From Nitrospinota bacterium (GTDB lineage Bacteria; UBA8248), in the NCBI GenBank assembly GCA_026706735.1, contig JAPOYD010000021.1, positions 5,659 through 69,658 on the forward strand: a DNA stretch of 64,000 bases. The letters are read 5' to 3'. This document shows, piece after piece, positions 3,291 to 64,000 of this stretch (the first letter of the stretch is position 1; every line of letters starts with the position of its first letter). The position numbers were made by a program, and so were the translations under genes. The notes beneath the pieces were generated by a model. The model worked only from the letters and a program-made list of their open reading frames with translations, searched no databases and had not been told where the DNA came from.

Positions 3291-4172
3291 CTACCATGAG
3301 GCTGTCAATCTCCTTAAATAATTTCGAAATGCGGGGCCGATATCCTCACGATCCAGTGCGAACTCGACCGTTGCCTCCAAAAAACCAAGTTTATCGCCTG
3401 CGTCAAAGCGCTTTCCTTCATACTCATAGGCGTAAAGCCTGGTATGTTCCAGCAGACCCCGCAACCCGTCGGTGAGCTGAATCTCTCCTTTCGCATCCGG
3501 CCTCACGCGTTCGAGCACCGAGAAAATTTCCGGCGGCAAAACGTAGCGGCCGATGATGGCGACGTCTGAGGGCGCATCTTCCGGCTTTGGCTTTTCCACC
3601 ATCCCCTTGAGCGGCGTGACGCCCGGGGCGGGCGACGGCTCGCCGGAAGGATCGATGACGCCGTATTTGGAGAGCGCGTGCTTTTCGACCCGCAGCCCCG
3701 CGACCACGCCGCCGCCATGCGCATCGAACACACGCACCAACTGGCCGATGGCGGGCTCTTCGCTCCTGATAACGTCATCGGACAATATGACGGCGAAAGG
3801 CTCATCTCCCACGGCCGGCTTCGCGCACCAGATTGCATGGCCCAGCCCCAAAGGTCTCTTTTGGCGGATGGACGTGATACGCGCTTTTTGCGAAATTTCC
3901 TCTACCACGGCTAGCAATCTTTCCTCACCCCTGTCGCGCAGATAGGATTCCACCTCGAACGCCACATCAAAGTGGTCCACCATCGAAACCTTTCCGCGGC
4001 CGGTGATGAAGACGATCTCCTCGATGCCGGCGTCCAGGGCCTCCTGCACGCCGAACTGGATTTGCGGAATGTCCACGATGGGGAGCATCTCTTTCGGGAT
4101 CACCTTGGTGGCGGGCAAAAACCGCGTACCGAGTCCCGCCACAGGAAAAACAGCCTTGCGAACCCGGCTCAT
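3291..4172 (-). CDS. galU: UTP--glucose-1-phosphate uridylyltransferase.
   Basis: The N-terminal motif AVFPVAGLGTRFLPATK..PKEMLPIV is typical of GalU and the length is about 290 aa. Confidence 0.9.
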   Translation of the reverse strand: MSRVRKAVFPVAGLGTRFLPATKVIPKEMLPIVDIPQIQFGVQEALDAGIEEIVFITGRGKVSMVDHFDVAFEVESYLRDRGEERLLAVVEEISQKARITSIRQKRPLGLGHAIWCAKPAVGDEPFAVILSDDVIRSEEPAIGQLVRVFDAHGGGVVAGLRVEKHALSKYGVIDPSGEPSPAPGVTPLKGMVEKPKPEDAPSDVAIIGRYVLPPEIFSVLERVRPDAKGEIQLTDGLRGLLEHTRLYAYEYEGKRFDAGDKLGFLEATVEFALDREDIGPAFRNYLRRLTASW

Positions 4173-16646: not shown

Positions 16647-16725
16647 GGCGGTTCATACGGGGTTGCTGAAAAAGTCCTGGTTTCATGATTCTAGGTATTG
16701 GACCGACCGATAAGAGAGGAGAGTT

Positions 16726-16910
16726 CACTCCCCCCTTGAGGGTCGGGCTTCCCGAGGGAGAAAGCCCGACGGTGAACTAAGGGCGTAAGCCCGCAAGTGA
16801 ACCGGTGGGGGGTATAATTCAAAATACTCGATAAACGCGATCCACCCCCCACCGCATCAGCCTTCGCACAAAGCGCTCGGCTTCTGCGACTCCCCCTCAA
16901 GGGGGGAGTG
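16726..16910. mobile_element. MITE-like palindromic element, family 1 (TIR CACTCCCCCCTTGAGGG / CCCTCAAGGGGGGAGTG), copy A.
   Basis: 17-bp terminal inverted repeats, an internal GGTGGGGGG/CCCCCCACC inverted repeat, and a conserved core GGGCGTAAGCCCGCAAG. Three more copies lie at 44795, 61066 and 63569. Confidence 0.7.
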
Positions 16911-26711: not shown

Positions 26712-27446
26712 CTACCCGAGCGCGTCCAAATTCAAGCCCTGCCCCAGGCGGAGAAGCTGCTCTGCATCCTGGGTGCCCGGGGCTGCGCCAGCCATCATTT
26801 CATACACACCCGCCAGGTAAGGAATCACGCCCAGAAGCGGAGCATCCGGCCCGCAAAGCTCGGCGACCGCCGCCGGATTGCGCTCTGCCGCCGGCGTGGC
26901 CTCCCCCGTCGTGTCGGAGAGGATGACGCCCAAAATCGCAAGGCCCTGCCTCTTCGCCTCCCGCACGCTCAAAAGCGTGTGATTGATGGTCCCGAGACCC
27001 AGAGGGGCGACGAGCACGGTAGGCAGATTCGCGCGGCGCGCCAAATCGCTCATCGAGACGCCTTCGGCCAAAGGGGCGAGTAAACCGCCCGCGCCCTCGA
27101 CTAGCAATGGCCCGCACTCTTTTTTGAGCGCTTCTATCTGCTCGACGATTCTTTCCAAATCCGGCGGCGCGCCCTCGCGTTCCGCCGCGTGAGCGGGAGT
27201 CAGGGGAACTTCGTATCTGTAGGGGCAAATCTCATCGAGCGGCCTCGGGTCACCCGCCGCCGTCTTGAGCGCCAGAGCGTCTCTGGGGACGAGGCTGCCA
27301 TCCATAAACGCGCAGGCCGATTCGGCGGGCTTCATCACCCTCGGGTCCAGATCCTGCGCCGCCCAGTGGGCCGCGATGACGCAGCCCGCCACCGTCTTTC
27401 CCACGCCGGTTCCCGTTCCGGTCAAAAAGATGGCAATATCGGACAT
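26712..27446 (-). CDS. bioD: Dethiobiotin synthetase.
   Basis: A P-loop (GTGTGVGKT) and BioD-family similarity over the full length of about 244 aa. Confidence 0.9.
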   Translation of the reverse strand: MSDIAIFLTGTGTGVGKTVAGCVIAAHWAAQDLDPRVMKPAESACAFMDGSLVPRDALALKTAAGDPRPLDEICPYRYEVPLTPAHAAEREGAPPDLERIVEQIEALKKECGPLLVEGAGGLLAPLAEGVSMSDLARRANLPTVLVAPLGLGTINHTLLSVREAKRQGLAILGVILSDTTGEATPAAERNPAAVAELCGPDAPLLGVIPYLAGVYEMMAGAAPGTQDAEQLLRLGQGLNLDALG

Positions 27447-27703: not shown

Positions 27704-27744
27704 AATATCTGACTCCTCGATAAGCCTCCTGGCAGTCCTTAATT

Positions 27745-27895
27745 CCCTGCCAAATAGCGTGTCAAATAGTGTGCCAAATAACGTATAATTAAAAGTATAT
27801 TTTTCAAATAAAATTTGACAAACATATTATAATCATATACTTATAATTATAGATGTGTTGTCAAATAGTGTGTCAAATAGTGTGTCAAATAAGGA
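27745..27895. promoter_or_regulatory. Array of about 12-bp direct repeats (TGTCAAATAGTG-like, at least 6 copies) in the AT-rich fic promoter region.
   Basis: ...tgccaaatagcg tgtcaaatagtg tgccaaataacg ... gtgttgtcaaatagtg tgtcaaatagtg tgtcaaataAGGAG. The array ends at the RBS and includes a palindromic TTCAAATAAAATTTGACAA segment. Confidence 0.4.
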
Positions 27896-27901
27896 GATAT
27901 C

Positions 27902-29092
27902 TTGGACTGGAGAAAATTCAGATTCGAATATCATTACGAACCCGCTGGTCTCACGAGCACCATTATTTCCATAGAAGCGTCCAAAGAAGCGGCCATGAGC
28001 CTCATTCTCCCTCCTGAGTGGGGGGAAACATTGAACAAGCTCAACCGTGTCCGCGCCATTCACGGCACCACGGCCATCGAAGGAAATCCCCTTTCAGAAG
28101 CCGAAGTCTCACAACAAATCGAGGCACAGGAGCAATCCGCCGATCACCAGGATGCAACGCAACTCAGCAAGGAGCAAATTCAGATTAGAAACGCCGGAGC
28201 CGCGCAAACGTGGGTCCAAGAGAGGTTCAAACCCGGCAGCGACCCCTTCACTCTCTCTGACATTTTGATCATGCACAAAATGATTACCGAGAATGCCGAC
28301 ATGACGGACAACACGCCCGGGCAGTTGAGAGCTTTTTCGGTTCAAGTTGGTAGCCCTTCTTTGGGAGGAGTTCACAGGGGCGCGCCGCATGAGGAGCTGC
28401 CCGGTTTGATGAACGAATACATCGAATTTTTGCGAGCCCGCAAAATGGAGGCGGAACACCCCGCCATTCGCGCATTACTCGCGCATTTTTTCCTGGTGAC
28501 TATCCACCCCTTCGGCGACGGAAACGGAAGAACATCCCGCCTGGTGGAGGCGGGAATCTTGTTCCGCGGGGAGTATAACGTACACGGCTTCTACGGACTG
28601 TCGAACTATTTCTATCGCCACGACGATGAATACAAGAGGCTTCTTCAAAAGTGCAGGGAAGAACAACCCTTCAATGTTACCCCGTTTATTGCTTTTGGCT
28701 TACAGGGCTTTATGGAGGAGTTGAAAGGAATCAACAATTTCATCAAGACGAAGTTGAATCGAATCGTCTATCGAAACATGCTGGTGCAGGCGCGCAACAA
28801 GAAGATATCCGAAAGGAGATACCTGATTAACGACAGGGAATATGGCCTTCTGGATTTCTTGATATCGGAGACCGAGCCTCTTGATCCGTTTTCCGAGCAA
28901 CCCTCGAAGAGCCTGAGTGTAAGTGAGTTGTTCGAATCCCCCTATATTCGAGGAGCATACAAGGAGGTATCCACAAGAACCTTTTTTAGGGAATTAGTAC
29001 GACTCGAAGAATTCGGCTTCTTGAAGCTCACAGACACGAAATCCGATGGATGGATTATGGAGTTGGATTTTGACGCTATAGGGAAATACTAA
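27902..29092 (+). CDS. fic: Fic/Doc-family protein (AMPylator with an internal inhibitory motif).
   Basis: Fic motif HPFGDGNGRTSR. The N-terminal segment TTAIEGN fits the (S/T)xxxE(G/N) auto-inhibition motif. A C-terminal winged helix follows. GC is lower than the flanks. Confidence 0.85.
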   Translation: MDWRKFRFEYHYEPAGLTSTIISIEASKEAAMSLILPPEWGETLNKLNRVRAIHGTTAIEGNPLSEAEVSQQIEAQEQSADHQDATQLSKEQIQIRNAGAAQTWVQERFKPGSDPFTLSDILIMHKMITENADMTDNTPGQLRAFSVQVGSPSLGGVHRGAPHEELPGLMNEYIEFLRARKMEAEHPAIRALLAHFFLVTIHPFGDGNGRTSRLVEAGILFRGEYNVHGFYGLSNYFYRHDDEYKRLLQKCREEQPFNVTPFIAFGLQGFMEELKGINNFIKTKLNRIVYRNMLVQARNKKISERRYLINDREYGLLDFLISETEPLDPFSEQPSKSLSVSELFESPYIRGAYKEVSTRTFFRELVRLEEFGFLKLTDTKSDGWIMELDFDAIGKY

Positions 29093-35727: not shown

Positions 35728-35802
35728 TTGTCCTAAAGAGAAAACCACGGGAATAGGATAATCGCGGAGGGTTGTCCATGCTGGCAAATCCGTCCACCAA
35801 GT

Positions 35803-36163
35803 CGTCATTCCGGCGAATGCCGGAATCCAGAAGAATTTCCTGATCCATGAAACAACTCTGCGTATACATTCTCGCAAGCAAGCGCAACGGTACACTCTAT
35901 ATCGGTGTTACGTCCGACCTCATCCGGCGGGTCTGGCAACACAAGAACAATGCGACGGGAGGCTTCACAAAGCGCTATGGTGTCCACACCCTGGTCTGGT
36001 ACGAGAGTCACGAAACCATGGATAGCGCGATTGTACATGAGAAGAGACTCAAAAACTGGCCAAGAGCGCGAAAGCTCTCATTGATTGAAACAGGCAATCC
36101 GAACTGGCGTGATTTGTATGAGGACCTCATCGGCTCTGGATTCCGGCATTCGCCGGAATGACG
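35803..36163 (+). mobile_element. GIY-YIG nuclease cassette bounded by inverted copies of a 28-bp palindrome (family 2: CGTCATTCCGGCGAATGCCGGAATCCAG).
   Basis: The left inverted repeat is at 35803-35830 and its reverse complement at 36136-36163. The right repeat encodes the last 7 codons and the stop of the enclosed gene. Confidence 0.55.
35847..36161 (+). CDS. GIY-YIG nuclease family protein (COG2827/UPF0213-like).
   Basis: GIY-YIG core (CVYILASKRNGTLYIGVTSDLIRRVWQH...E) in a protein of about 104 aa. Confidence 0.8.
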   Translation: MKQLCVYILASKRNGTLYIGVTSDLIRRVWQHKNNATGGFTKRYGVHTLVWYESHETMDSAIVHEKRLKNWPRARKLSLIETGNPNWRDLYEDLIGSGFRHSPE

Positions 36164-36363
36164 GTGTTAAGTCCGTGTGTGGCGAGAAGAGCGACAAGGT
36201 GCCTCCCTTGTATATGGTATAATTCCAGATGAACTGTACAGCATACCCCTAATCCAATCCCATAAGAGCAGACCCTTTGACCGTCCTGCGAAGCCCCTGC
36301 GCCTGTCCGAAAAAGGGGGAAATCACGGGAGGTTTCCCCTGCCGGCGAATCCGTCTCCCACGC

Positions 36364-36503
36364 CGTCATTCCGGCGAATGCCGGAATCCAGGGGCTTTGC
36401 TTTTTGTTCTTTGGCTATTATTCCAGGCGAATGAACGAGGAAATGGAACGCCGTAATTTACCCTTCTCATCGGCTCTGGATTCCGGCATTCGCCGGAATG
36501 ACG
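36364..36503. mobile_element. Family-2 MITE-like element (a 28-bp inverted-repeat pair around an 84-bp spacer) carrying a degenerate 3' remnant of the GIY-YIG gene.
   Basis: The inverted repeats are at 36364-36391 and 36476-36503. The spacer ends ...CTCATCGGCTCTGGATTCC, matching the 3' end of the intact gene. Confidence 0.55.
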
Positions 36504-36607
36504 ATCAAAGACCGTCACGGCAACCGACTCACAGGAGTTTCCCGGCACCCCTCAAGGGGGAGTGAATTCCTTCTTCATCGCTCCCGCGGGCGGCCCTCTC
36601 GGCCCCC

Positions 36608-36943
36608 CTACGATGCCCCCACATAAACAAGCGCGCCGGGTTTGAGGGGGGCGTTCTTCTTCGGTTTTTTCACCCGCAACTCCACCGTCATGCCCAGCTT
36701 GACCATGAAGTCGATCAGCCTTCCGCGGGAGAAGCGCGAGAGCTTCTCGTTCATGAGATACGAGGCCTCGGGTTGTTTGATGTCGAGAATGCGCATCACT
36801 TCCTTTTGGGTCAGTTTTCTCGACTGAATCGTATTCGATACCTCGCTCAGGAGTTGCGACCTCAGCTGTATCTCATCCGCTTTCGGGTGTCCCAGATCCT
36901 TGAAGATATTGTGGCTTCCCTTGAAAATTTCAAATTCACTCAT
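36608..36943 (-). CDS. higA: HigA-family antitoxin (XRE-type HTH).
   Basis: An HTH_XRE protein of about 110 aa immediately downstream of a RelE/HigB-like toxin, which is the HigB-HigA gene order. Confidence 0.75.
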   Translation of the reverse strand: MSEFEIFKGSHNIFKDLGHPKADEIQLRSQLLSEVSNTIQSRKLTQKEVMRILDIKQPEASYLMNEKLSRFSRGRLIDFMVKLGMTVELRVKKPKKNAPLKPGALVYVGAS

Positions 36944-36955
36944 CTATCAACCTCC

Positions 36956-37335
36956 TCATTCCGCACTTTCTTGATTTTTCATATATTCAATCAATCCCCT
37001 GAGATTGGCCTCGATGATCCGCATCTCCCGCCGAGGCGTTCGGATTCCTCTTTTCGATTTCTTTTGAAAGACGTGCAGAACACAAACGGCCGCCCTGAAT
37101 TTCACCGTGTAAATCGCCCGATACGCGTCACCGCCGCGATTTTCAACAATCTCTAACACCCGGCGCCCCTGAAACCCTTCAGCGGTTTGGCGGAGAGGGC
37201 TTTTCTTCCCCATTGAGCTACCTTCAAGGCGTAGAACATTCCCTCCTGCACCTCATGGGGAAATCGCTCAAACGCATCCTTGCTCCTGCCTAGCCACCAT
37301 ATCGGTTTGGGCGTCTTCGACCCGTTGCGCTGCAC
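36956..37335 (-). pseudogene. higB: HigB-family (Gp49/DUF891-like RelE superfamily) toxin disrupted by a 1-nt deletion in a G-run.
   Basis: The N-terminal ORF ends ...AKPLKGFRGAGC*. The C-terminal ORF continues ...VLEIVENRGGDAYRAIYTVKF...VLHVFQKKS in the -1 frame. Restoring one G in GCCGGG(G)TG gives the expected GFRGAGVLEIV. Confidence 0.7.
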
Positions 37336-37430: not shown

Positions 37431-37621
37431 GCCAGTCAACGCCGGGCCGATCCAGTCGGGGTTCGAAAGCCGGGATTGTTGAAAAAGCCCTCGCTCGATC
37501 GGCTCCGATACCGGAATGACGGTGAACACTCCCGATCATATAATCGCGCCACCCGTTATGATCTTTCCGGTTCACGAGAGGCGCGCGCGGCGCGGCCTCT
37601 TATCCAATAAGGAGACGACAG

Positions 37622-44493: not shown

Positions 44494-44624
44494 CCACGGG
44501 AGCGCCACTCTGCCGCAGGGTGGACACTTTCGGTATTCCCCTTCTCGGGAATACCGGCACCCCTACAAGATCGCCACCTTGCGGCAGGGCGGCTCGTTCG
44601 GTCTTCCCCTCCTCGGGGATACCA
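44494..44624. repeat. Two tandem copies of a roughly 63-bp unit, each containing a hairpin (GGTATTCCC-cttctc-GGGAATACC).
   Basis: Unit 1 is at 44494-44556 and unit 2 at 44560-44624, about 80% identical. Confidence 0.5.
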
Positions 44625-44660
44625 ACACCCCTACGGGAAAACCGGAAACAAAAAAGAAAA

Positions 44661-44687
44661 TGGATTCCGGCATGCGCCGGAATGACG
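44661..44687. repeat. Solo family-2 palindrome (TGGATTCCGGCATGCGCCGGAATGACG).
   Basis: A variant of the 28-bp inverted repeat that flanks the GIY-YIG gene. Confidence 0.5.
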
Positions 44688-44794
44688 AACCATCCCCGGC
44701 ATTTCCTCTTTCTTCGTCCAGGTTCAACCCCCCACCGGTGCAGTAAGGGCTTCGCCCTTGAACGGCATTGCCAGCCGACGAGAGAGAAGAGAAC

Positions 44795-44965
44795 CACTCC
44801 CCCCTTGAGAGGGAGTCGACGAGGTAAGGGCGTAAGCCCGCAAGCGAGTCGGTGGGGGGAGTTTCTTCAGTGGCATATCCCCCCACCGAATCGGCCTTCG
44901 CCCAAGGGCTCGGCCTCTTCGTCTGGCTTTCCCCTCGGGAAGCCAGACCCTCAAGGGGGGGAGTG
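44795..44965. mobile_element. Family-1 MITE-like element, copy B.
   Basis: CACTCCCCCCTTGAGAGGG ... CCCTCAAGGGGGGGGAGTG with the same internal core (GGGCGTAAGCCCGCAAG...GGTGGGGGG...CCCCCCACCGAATCGGCCTTCGCCC). Confidence 0.7.
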
Positions 44966-59829: not shown

Positions 59830-59967
59830 CGGGGTTTCCTGTCGGTTGGGAGATCGTTATCCGGCGGCGTCCATCCCATGAACCAGCGGAGAACTCTATC
59901 GCAACGAGGCGTTGCGTGCACCTAGGGGAGAAAATGTTGGCGATTTTGAATGCCTCTCTTTTCCGTA

Positions 59968-59990
59968 GGGGCGGACCCATGTGTCCGCCC
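59968..59990. repeat. 23-bp palindrome GGGGCGGACCCATGTGTCCGCCC, the reverse-complement copy of the element at 18424-18446.
   Basis: An exact reverse complement, followed by a partial repeat GCATGTCCGCCC. Confidence 0.5.
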
Positions 59991-60108
59991 GCATGTCCGC
60001 CCACAGGTTTCGCTTCGCCGTCATTCCGGGGCACGGCGAATCATTTTGACTTTCCTCGCGCCTTAGGAAACACTCCTAGATCAGCTACTTCACGGGGACT
60101 GAAGTTAA

Positions 60109-60981: not shown

Positions 60982-61065
60982 AAAATTCTGCTTTCGTGAT
61001 TCAGCGAATGTAGCTGGCCTATGAGAGAGGTAACTTAATTCCACCCTTGCAAAGCGCCAACCAAC

Positions 61066-61213
61066 CACTCCCCCCTTGAGGGGGAGTCAACGCGGCAAGG
61101 ACAATGTCCGCAGCCGCGTTGGTGGGGGGAGCTTTTATTTTAGAACCGTCCCCCCACCGAATCGGCCTTCGCCGGAGGCTCAGCCTCTTCGACTCCCCCT
61201 CAAGGGGGGAGTG
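61066..61213. mobile_element. Family-1 MITE-like element, copy C.
   Basis: CACTCCCCCCTTGAGGGGGAG ... CTCCCCCTCAAGGGGGGAGTG with the conserved internal core. Confidence 0.7.
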
Positions 61214-61240
61214 AATTGCTTTCTCGTCGGAAAAACCTTC

Positions 61241-63519: not shown

Positions 63520-63568
63520 GGGCGCGCTCCGGGTTGGGGGTCGAACCCGACCGAGTAGAGAAGAAATT

Positions 63569-63785
63569 CACTCCCCCCTTGAGGGTTCTTGCCGTCTGAC
63601 GAGAGTGGAAATCACTCCCCCCTTGAGGGTCGGTCTTTCCTCCTCGGGAAGACCGACAGTGAGGTGAGGGCGTAAGCCCGAAAGCGAACTGGTGGGGGGA
63701 GATTTTACCCTGTGGCATGTCCCCCCACCGAATCGGCCTTCGCCCAAGGGCTCGGCCTCTTCGACTCCCCCTCAAGGGGGGAGTG
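63569..63785. mobile_element. Family-1 MITE-like element, copy D, with a tandemly duplicated left terminal inverted repeat.
   Basis: CACTCCCCCCTTGAGGG occurs at 63569 and again at about 63613. The right inverted repeat CCCTCAAGGGGGGAGTG ends at 63785. The core is conserved. Confidence 0.7.
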
Positions 63786-63856
63786 ATTCTTCCTTCTTCA
63801 TCAGTTGCCGACAACCCTCAAGGGACTGTTAAAAAACCCTGGATTGCCAGGATTGC

Positions 63857-63989
63857 CGTCATTCCGGCGCATGCCGGAATCCAGGGACTTTGTTTTTTGT
63901 ATTTGTCTTTTCGCTTTATCGTTTTTCTTGGCCGTCCTGCGATTCGGTATTCCCGTCTGCTCTGGATTCCGGCTTTCGCCGGAATGACG
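63857..63989. mobile_element. Family-2 MITE-like element (a 28-bp inverted-repeat pair around a roughly 77-bp spacer).
   Basis: CGTCATTCCGGCGCATGCCGGAATCCAG at 63857-63884 and its reverse-complement variant at 63962-63989. The spacer begins GGACTTTGTTTTTTGT, as the spacer at 36392 begins GGGCTTTGCTTTTTGT. Confidence 0.55.
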
Positions 63990-64000
63990 GTGAACACCCT

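Follow-up and report, generated by a model that had tools for sequence, protein, structure and literature searches.

In a 64,000-nucleotide stretch of DNA from an uncultured Nitrospinota bacterium (contig JAPOYD010000021.1 of assembly GCA_026706735.1, positions 5,659 to 69,658; hereafter the window), a small GIY-YIG nuclease gene, ssn, is bracketed by two inverted copies of a 28-nt hairpin repeat. This locus is very probably an Ssn/SRM locus, consisting of an Ssn-family nuclease and its cognate repeat, the SRM, which is also a repetitive extragenic palindromic (REP) sequence of the CGTC-1 type. The system is already published, and the locus adds one more Ssn/SRM pair to it. Ssn nucleases, the NTS/SRM repeats, and SsnA of Neisseria meningitidis were described by Chenal et al. 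(Nat Commun 2025, PMC11893778), while the CGTC-tagged REP superfamily was described by Di Nocera, De Gregorio, and Rocco in 2013 (PMC3733652). The suggestion of a first-pass annotation, made from the nucleotide letters alone, that such a system was not yet characterised must, therefore, be withdrawn.

The window protein (104 aa) gives a single Pfam match, to GIY-YIG (residues 5-76, E=1.6e-15), and contains no other domain. Compared by BLASTP with the SsnA orthologue of Neisseria gonorrhoeae, it is 62% identical over 93 aa (E=9e-42), and it passes the published threshold for Ssn homology (E < 1e-10 to Neisseria SsnA). The gonococcal reference is an open reading frame (ORF) of NZ_CP119140.1 (PLSDB), which was taken as the orthologue of Neisseria SsnA because of its length of 94 aa, its residues Y6, Y17, and E64, and its position amid nine exact NTS copies; these are found within 3.3 kb and mostly form heads-out pairs. 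The PLSDB 'plasmid' records NZ_CP119140.1 (L222) and NZ_CP119142.1 are, in fact, 2.17-Mb N. gonorrhoeae chromosomes. SsnA of N. meningitidis is a 94-aa protein of the GIY-YIG_unchar_3 family (cd10448) in CDD, whose Y6A, Y17A, and E64A mutants lose cleavage (PMC11893778). The corresponding residues of the window protein, Y7, Y18, and E65, are all present, and they are invariant in a 31-sequence alignment.

The ORF is built in two parts. The core (residues 1-95) aligns with homologues of 94-96 aa, and the tail, GSGFRHSPE, derives from the spacer and the right SRM. This repeat overlaps the final 26 nt of the ORF, from within codon 97 (two bases) through codons 98-104 (GFRHSPE) to the stop codon, TGA, as the first-pass annotation had recognised. 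The window ORF, unlike Neisseria SsnA, thus runs into the downstream SRM and gains a tail of 9 aa. A repeat-encoded tail xGFRHSPE is common to all 13 of the 13 closest homologues, and homologues outside this group carry other repeat-derived heads or tails.

Other resources add little on the protein. The proposed COG2827/UPF0213 likeness proved remote: in a PDB sequence search, the sole match was 1zg2 (E=6e-4, 22.9 bits), and no Ssn structure was found. UPF0213/YhbQ proteins (1zg2, BH0048) have the same GIY-YIG fold and are likewise about 100 aa long, but the sequence match is marginal and they form another subfamily; to our knowledge, no repeat association is known for them. NCBIfam returned one sub-threshold match alone, to the group I intron endonuclease TIGR01453 (17.9 bits against a cut-off of 56), and PADLOC nothing above threshold. 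Phage genomes gave a single weak match to Ssn, and the gene is, therefore, not phage-borne. A gene neighbouring ssn is 92% identical to one from a metagenome-assembled genome (MAG) labelled 'Nitrospinae bacterium' by NCBI.

The 28-mer CGTCATTCCGGCGAATGCCGGAATCCAG occurs seven times across the window, for an expectation of about 0 to 0.6 copies. Four copies are exact (those bracketing ssn and those of the adjacent doublet), the two copies of the second doublet have one mismatch each, and the solo copy has two (Table 1). The 28-mer was not matched in 100 dinucleotide shuffles of the window. The published SRM search pattern, HGTCWYN(0-2)YYVSBRHN(0-5)WNVSBRGN(0-2)RNCYNB, hits precisely the same seven sites, with 0.59 +/- 0.79 hits in shuffles. 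The repeat consists of CGTC, ATTCCGGC, GAAT, GCCGGAAT, and CCAG, in this order. It is predicted to fold, as single-stranded DNA (ssDNA), into a hairpin with an 8-bp stem (ATTCCGGC/GCCGGAAT) and a 4-nt loop (-9.1 kcal/mol, z = -3.9). Set against the Neisseria NTS consensus, it shows two differences only, a compensatory swap of one stem pair (C:G to G:C) and a change of one loop base. A 28-nt motif made of CGTC, an 8-bp stem, a 4-nt loop, and CCAG fits the SRM pattern. This repeat, the single-domain nuclease with a core of about 95 aa and the catalytic Tyr/Tyr/Glu, the repeat-gene-repeat order, and the presence of many more intergenic copies are all shared with the Ssn/NTS-SRM system. One difference is the host, an uncultured lineage rather than Neisseria.

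The repeat also has each stated feature of the CGTC REPs, namely, a CGTC head, an 8-9-bp stem starting from AT, a 4-5-nt loop, and a CCA tail (PMC3733652). The CGTC-1 family, which includes dRS3 of Neisseria and RPE-6 of Rickettsia, is defined more narrowly, by a CGTC or TGTC head, an 8-bp stem with A and T first, a 4-nt loop, and an unpaired CCA tail (PMC3733652), and the window repeat agrees with it on every point. CGTC REPs are intergenic, mostly organised as one-type inverted dimers with 20-100-nt spacers, and were said in 2013 to 'apparently lack a dedicated transposase' (PMC3733652). The seven window copies, arranged mainly as two gene-less doublets and the pair around ssn, resemble this description, except that here, as in the Ssn paper, repeats bracket a dedicated nuclease gene. 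The CGTC-REP work is not cited in the Ssn paper (PMC11893778).

The anatomy that the first-pass annotation had drawn holds at all its coordinates: the inverted hairpin repeats around a 104-aa GIY-YIG gene, two repeat pairs enclosing only a spacer (84 and 77 nt), a solo palindrome, and two half-sites that are genuine partial copies. The left SRM points its CGTC head outward, and 16 nt separate its end from the start codon of ssn. The doublet downstream of the gene (36364-36503) is predicted to fold into one long ssDNA hairpin (-44.8 kcal/mol, z = -9.5). Its right end repeats the 3' end of ssn, with 36126-36163 and 36466-36503 identical at 38/38 positions, so that the last 10 nt of its spacer are the last 10 nt of ssn ahead of the SRM. 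The initial 16 nt or so of the spacer of the second doublet, at 63857, are similar to those of this one. A T-rich run follows the solo SRM at 44660 on the sense strand. The truncated SRM matches 63978-63997 at 19/20 positions, including 8 nt beyond the SRM. Searching Rfam with the whole window gave no match, a consensus terminator scan did not call the SRMs, and promoter and terminator scans yielded nothing useful for ssn expression.

Table 1. The ssn gene, SRM copies, and associated flank in the window.
Feature	Position	Strand	Composition	Basis
ssn gene	35847..36161	+	Ssn-family single-domain GIY-YIG nuclease, 104 aa	Pfam, SsnA homology, catalytic residues, dN/dS
Left SRM	35803..35830	+	CGTC-1-type REP, NTS-like hairpin	Exact 28-mer, SRM pattern match, fold
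Right SRM	36136..36163	-	Inverted, head outward	28-mer and SRM pattern match
Flank outside left SRM	35760..35802	+	43 nt, shared with 36321-36363	
Gene-less SRM doublet, REPIN-like	36364..36503		36364-36391 (+) and 36476-36503 (-), heads outward, 84-nt spacer (36392-36475)	
Second SRM doublet	63857..63989		63857-63884 (+) and 63962-63989 (-), 77-nt spacer (63885-63961)	
Solo SRM	44660..44687	-	Loop GCAT, tail CCAT	28-mer and SRM pattern match
Truncated SRM	37510..37529	-	Head half and outside flank; ACCGGAATGACGGTGAACAC on + strand	
Degenerate SRM relic	60019..60044	+	CGTCATTCCGG (60019-60029), then GGCACGGCGAATCAT; adjoins GTAG-type REP-like hairpin	

The association between gene and repeat extends well beyond the window. 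Ssn homologues form more than 8,000 clusters, most of them 94-96 aa long. Among 80 metagenomic homologue loci that were fetched, many show inverted palindromes of the same design on the flanks of the gene, with compensatory stem variants. Counting the 55 loci with full flanks, an SRM lies within 250 nt of the gene in 46 (84%) and on both sides in 29 (53%). The published survey gave 71% of homologues with a nearby SRM and 42% with SRMs on both sides, and found the gene in 81% of genomes with more than 200 SRMs (PMC11893778). Up to 250 nt from the gene, SRMs reach a density of 2.2 per kb, against 0.09 per kb at distances above 750 nt. This 24-fold difference speaks against a generic REP with no preference for GIY-YIG genes, the outcome that the first-pass annotation had named as fatal to its proposal.

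Orientation and spacing are also constrained. The nearest upstream SRM is on the + strand at 28/38 loci and the nearest downstream SRM on the - strand at 28/37, the modal distance between the upstream SRM and the start codon is 12 nt, and the preferred arrangement downstream is an inverted SRM whose start falls 3 nt ahead of, or 4 nt past, the end of codon 95. The window cassette follows this preferred SRM-gene-SRM layout, its right SRM beginning 4 nt past core codon 95, as does the nearest downstream SRM at 5/37 loci. Over 43 distinct SRMs, 98% of stem cells are paired and double changes occur at 5/8 pairs; judging from this pairing and covariation, the hairpin is under selection.

The search in the other direction was less informative. 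The palindrome core is present in at least 120 genome stretches, which come from many phyla; on comparison of 120 of these with window Ssn by tblastn, none had the gene in its 8-kb chunk. Because of this, most SRMs appear to lie far from ssn, as most REPs lie far from RAYT genes; the result does not, therefore, refute the association, for which the reverse test, from the gene to the repeats, is the informative one. In these 120 loci, 43/52 neighbouring SRM pairs are heads-out (+/-), the doublets of one genome have a common spacer with identity ending at the outer CGTC ends, and near-identical SRMs are spread over many phyla.

Two side observations concern the repeats themselves. For 186 SRMs (window and L003-L122), 87% have C or T as the base directly 5' of CGTC, and positions -10 to -5 are G-poor; a conserved motif or preferred cut-site context may, thus, extend upstream of the published SRM pattern. 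In a Dehalococcoidia MAG (L063, 3083-3314 and 4980-5068), six same-strand SRMs form a tandem series that repeats about every 62 nt, the repeated unit taking in a half-SRM, CAACCGTCACTCCCAACCT. This array was considered as a CRISPR and ruled out, since its 'spacers' are identical, making it a plain tandem repeat.

The gene itself appears to stay in place. In two relatives, L001 and L002 (about 88-89% nucleotide identity), ssn occupies the same locus, between NUDIX and HTH_37 genes, with a synonymous divergence (dS) of 0.24 and a nonsynonymous-to-synonymous ratio (dN/dS) of 0.185. Identical homologue proteins recur in a single gene context each, on 24 contigs for P0080 and on 20 for P0029, and no second context was found across these 44 contigs. 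The window holds one gene-bearing cassette. The two ssn paralogues in the L002 genome are only 74% identical to window Ssn, and are, thus, not recent copies; one relative has a second, divergent paralogue at a separate locus (L227), where it is flanked by doublets. The gene looks vertically inherited, and ssn is a stably placed chromosomal gene under purifying selection, much as RAYT genes are, and no evidence of its movement was found.

Repeat content, for its part, varies among relatives at orthologous sites. At the position of the window's doublet, L001 and L002 carry a left SRM, the 5' untranslated region (UTR), and the first bases (ATGAA; ATGAAAC in L002) of a truncated second ssn. The 43-nt flank precedes both left SRMs in these relatives as well. 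In the window, flank and SRM together form a 71-nt direct repeat, 83% identical, at the two adjacent left ends. This shared outside flank and the truncated second cassette of the relatives point to a tandem duplication of cassette and flank that probably decayed differently in each lineage. We infer that the doublet beside ssn is the remnant of the duplicated second cassette, in agreement with the first proposal that it arose from a full element. The site orthologous to the 63857 doublet has a single SRM with a 5-nt loop in L223 and L226 and none in L225. In L203, a relative that is 91-95% identical, the intergenic stretch matching the solo SRM at 44660 contains no SRM. No target-site duplication is visible at the doublet flanks.

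The 43-nt flank was also considered as a separate repeat family of the window and rejected, as it has no further copy there beyond the two adjacent left ends. A hairpin preceding the window's left SRMs (GGACAACCACGGAGGGTTGTCC) is found at another locus in L225 (about 3860-3940, upstream of a methyltransferase gene). There, it is followed by CACCGCCATTCC and TCCTTCATCGGGC, resembling a left SRM head joined to the inner right end of the doublet, and this arrangement may represent a collapsed element. Two tandem units of about 50-60 nt (GGACACTTTCGGTATTCCCCTYCTCGGGRAKACCRRCACCCCTAC) are found at about 44520-44640, immediately upstream of the solo SRM. These are more numerous in L203, which makes the intergenic alignment ambiguous. 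A comparison of 44660 as an empty versus a filled site (L203, L204) was, therefore, discarded, the spacer being made of other tandem repeats.

The mode of action of the window pair can be sketched by analogy with SsnA. The latter binds the NTS repeat (CGTCATTCCCGCGMAVGCGGGAATCYRG) solely as ssDNA and cuts a few nucleotides upstream, without cleaving the reverse strand, double-stranded DNA (dsDNA), or RNA. Direct binding and the cutting of ssDNA only, on the sense strand only and upstream of the motif, were established for four homologues (PMC11893778). When the DNA becomes single-stranded (during replication, repair, or uptake), the SRM sense strand would fold into its 8-bp hairpin, and Ssn would bind this hairpin with the conserved CGTC and CCA flanks. 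It would then hydrolyse the strand 3-4 nt 5' of CGTC, leaving antisense strand, dsDNA, and RNA uncut. Because both CGTC heads of the cassette face outward, the top-strand nick is predicted immediately outside 35803 and the bottom-strand nick immediately outside 36163. SRMs occur dispersed between genes, chiefly as heads-out doublets or single copies, and they vary from one relative to another; host replication or recombination may process the Ssn nicks in a way that spreads or maintains the repeats. We infer such a mobilisation of the repeats by Ssn, which would be a REP/REPIN-RAYT-like partnership using another chemistry, not classical transposition.

GIY-YIG nucleases are hydrolytic, form no covalent intermediate, and do not rejoin strands by themselves. 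As SsnA cuts the sense strand only, a heads-out unit would receive one cut per strand, outside the unit, and single-strand excision as practised by RAYT or IS608 should, therefore, not occur. Outside nicks on opposite strands, combined with the lack of a covalent intermediate, make peel-and-paste or cut-and-paste by Ssn alone implausible. Consequently, if Ssn does spread SRMs, host replication or repair at the nick would be needed.

With the REP/REPIN-RAYT systems, reportedly described by Nunvar in 2010 and by Bertels and Rainey in 2011, the locus shares hairpins with an asymmetric tag, inverted doublets, an enzyme that reads an ssDNA hairpin, and a gene that sits between its own inverted repeats at a locus held in relatives, one of which has two paralogues. 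The differences are the hydrolytic GIY-YIG enzyme, where RAYTs are HUH/Y1 (IS200/IS605-type) transposases, the CGTC tag instead of GTAG, and the absence in Ssn of a covalent intermediate and of intrinsic strand transfer, with one strand cut per repeat. The window system works like the REP/RAYT family, yet is not a member of it. The REP/RAYT-like logic proposed in the first-pass annotation thus stands for the anatomy and the gene-repeat association; the analogy was already in print, in the Ssn paper, whose discussion likens NTS-ssnA-NTS to an insertion sequence (IS), draws the IS200/IS605-REP parallel, and proposes domestication (PMC11893778), and GIY-YIG chemistry argues against RAYT-like transposition. 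IS200/IS605 elements and their miniature inverted-repeat transposable elements (MITEs) are similarly compact, with hairpin ends recognised as ssDNA and no visible target-site duplication. Nevertheless, both end hairpins of IS608 are read on one strand and are not mutual inverted copies, and IS200/IS605 elements occur as multiple identical copies in varied contexts, of which none was seen for ssn. The picture that fits best is a RAYT/REPIN-like one, in which a stable gene acts in trans on its repeats by a different chemistry.

Other explanations were weighed against this one. The cassette could be an active autonomous element, in which a GIY-YIG transposase, acting like RAYT or IS200/IS605 TnpA, moves the SRM-ssn-SRM unit and the doublets as its MITEs. 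The IS-like layout and mainly heads-out doublets recommend this idea, as do multicopy doublets with conserved spacers and identity ending at the CGTC heads, the truncated second cassette in relatives, the two paralogous ssn loci in one relative's genome, and near-identical SRMs over many phyla. It is, however, improbable, given a gene held at a shared locus at dS 0.24, identical proteins with no second context on 44 contigs, hydrolysis with neither covalent intermediate nor rejoining, and doublets without visible target-site duplication. Moreover, SsnA spares the antisense strand, and single outside cuts release no single-stranded circle. A homing invasion, with ssn as a free-standing GIY-YIG homing gene inserting into doublet spacers and the doublets as empty targets, is more improbable still. 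GIY-YIG domains are typical of homing endonucleases (PMC11893778; reference list of PMC1564403), the cassette looks like a doublet with the gene as spacer, and the doublet's inner right end matches the gene's 3' end. Its inner left end, however, is unlike the gene's 5' UTR, identical genes were not found in different doublets (P0080 and P0029 contigs), and the constant SRM-ORF spacing in distant homologues implies inheritance as a unit. The protein also has no DNA-binding domain past its nuclease core of about 95 aa, lacking the second domain of I-TevI-type homing endonucleases, and neither SsnA nor the Ssn family has dsDNA-cutting activity.

A purely host-serving role of Ssn is a serious alternative, even if we hold it to be considerably less probable than not. 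Ssn would be a domesticated ssDNA nuclease restricting DNA or modulating recombination, and the SRMs would be its marks, spread by ordinary duplication and recombination. The sole experimental phenotype, in Neisseria, is a lower integration of transforming DNA carrying NTS (PMC11893778). The gene is inherited vertically under purifying selection, and tandem duplication with deletion accounts for the neighbouring doublet without transposition. This leaves unexplained the tight bracketing of the gene by its own targets across phyla (12-nt gap, stop overlap), the recurrent heads-out doublets with family-specific spacers at unrelated sites, and the hundreds of copies that genomes carry (PMC3733652, PMC11893778); in addition, this lineage is not known to be naturally competent. 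Coincidence, with the 28-mer as a generic intergenic REP or terminator hairpin that brackets the gene without function, could draw on the 0/120 palindrome-core stretches with ssn in the 8-kb chunk and on the T-rich run often found after the sense strand. It is effectively refuted by the 24-fold rise in SRM density near ssn homologues, by flanking on both sides with fixed orientation and spacing at 53% of them, by the binding and cleavage established for four homologues (PMC11893778), and by the terminator scan, which did not call the SRMs.

Several points weigh against the Ssn/SRM interpretation and the RAYT-like picture built on it. The window protein carries P4L and W75R, changes at two near-invariant positions of the family, W75R also being found in the closest relative. 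Its presumed activity is transferred from SsnA of Neisseria and Wolbachia, and the only demonstrated role, which is to hold down the transformation of N. meningitidis with DNA that carries NTS, may not extend to an uncultured host. In L227, the second ssn paralogue lies between doublets and not within a heads-out pair, so that the cassette layout must be considered frequent, not obligatory. Orthologous sites differ in SRM content without clean boundaries between empty and filled states, and several repeat families are mixed mosaic-like in the intergenic regions, whose alignment is ambiguous. Finally, SRM propagation by Ssn is, for any organism, presented as a hypothesis only (PMC11893778).

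The surroundings of the locus contain further repeats and genes. A second, longer repeat family, a composite of about 150-250 nt with several hairpins (e.g., CACTCCCCCCTTGAGGGGGAGT and GGGCGTAAGCCC), is present at 16714-16910, 44783-44924, 61054-61228, and 63557-63799, with a partial copy at 36548-36579, and has SRM copies as neighbours at three sites. The truncated second ssn cassette of L001 and L002 continues directly into composite-like sequence (GACGAGAGAGAAGAACCA.TCCC). A GTAG-headed hairpin, GTAGGGGCGGACCCATGTGTCCGCCC, lies at 59965-59990 beside the degenerate SRM and is unrelated to the ssn gene; this match by itself is not above chance. Clearer GTAG hairpin copies (GTAGGGGCGGTTCGCGAACCGCCCCTAC) are found in intergenic regions of L223, L225, and L226, and REPs of the GTAG and CGTC types seem to coexist in the lineage.

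Directly downstream of the ssn locus is a HigA/HigB-like pair (36608-37335, -), made of an HTH_37 gene (36608-36943) and a Gp49-family toxin gene. A frameshift has probably broken the latter into two ORFs that overlap (36956-37213 and 37153-37335). The Gp49 gene is intact (121 aa) in L001 and missing in L002. An HTH_37/Gp49 pair also lies about 2 kb downstream of the L227 paralogue locus, its HTH_37 being only 27% identical. Elsewhere in the window, two clusters of three 12-nt direct repeats (TGTCAAATAGYG), at 27736-27793 and 27847-27904, occupy the interval that separates a CbiA/AAA_26 gene (26712-27446, -) from a Fic-domain gene (27902-29092, +), and look like an operator or iteron array.

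What the locus brings to the published system is an Ssn/SRM pair from an uncultured, high-GC lineage, with a G:C-swapped stem variant and a repeat-encoded tail. Three points go slightly beyond earlier work: SRMs are the CGTC-tagged REPs that the 2013 work had left without a dedicated enzyme; ssn behaves in a RAYT-like manner, with a fixed locus and purifying selection, while the repeats turn over at orthologous sites; and the strand-specific heads-out geometry would exclude simple excision models. Every further cognate pair of this kind is, moreover, a candidate reagent for cutting ssDNA at specific sites. Propagation of the repeats by Ssn was raised by Chenal et al. without a link to the CGTC-REP literature (PMC11893778). 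As a tentative extension, which we regard as possible and not as the likelier outcome, Ssn might supply what the CGTC-REP superfamily as a whole (Neisseria dRS3/NTS and Rickettsia RPE included) has long been missing, an enzyme that propagates its repeats, acting through nick-primed copying of heads-out doublets. If so, a 95-aa hydrolytic nuclease, unable to transpose, would drive a second REP-enzyme symbiosis parallel to REPIN-RAYT, and the window would capture its typical state, with a gene passed on vertically, a tandem copy that has decayed, and doublets turning over. Should Ssn indeed prove to propagate them, this would explain how a very widespread class of bacterial repeats arose.

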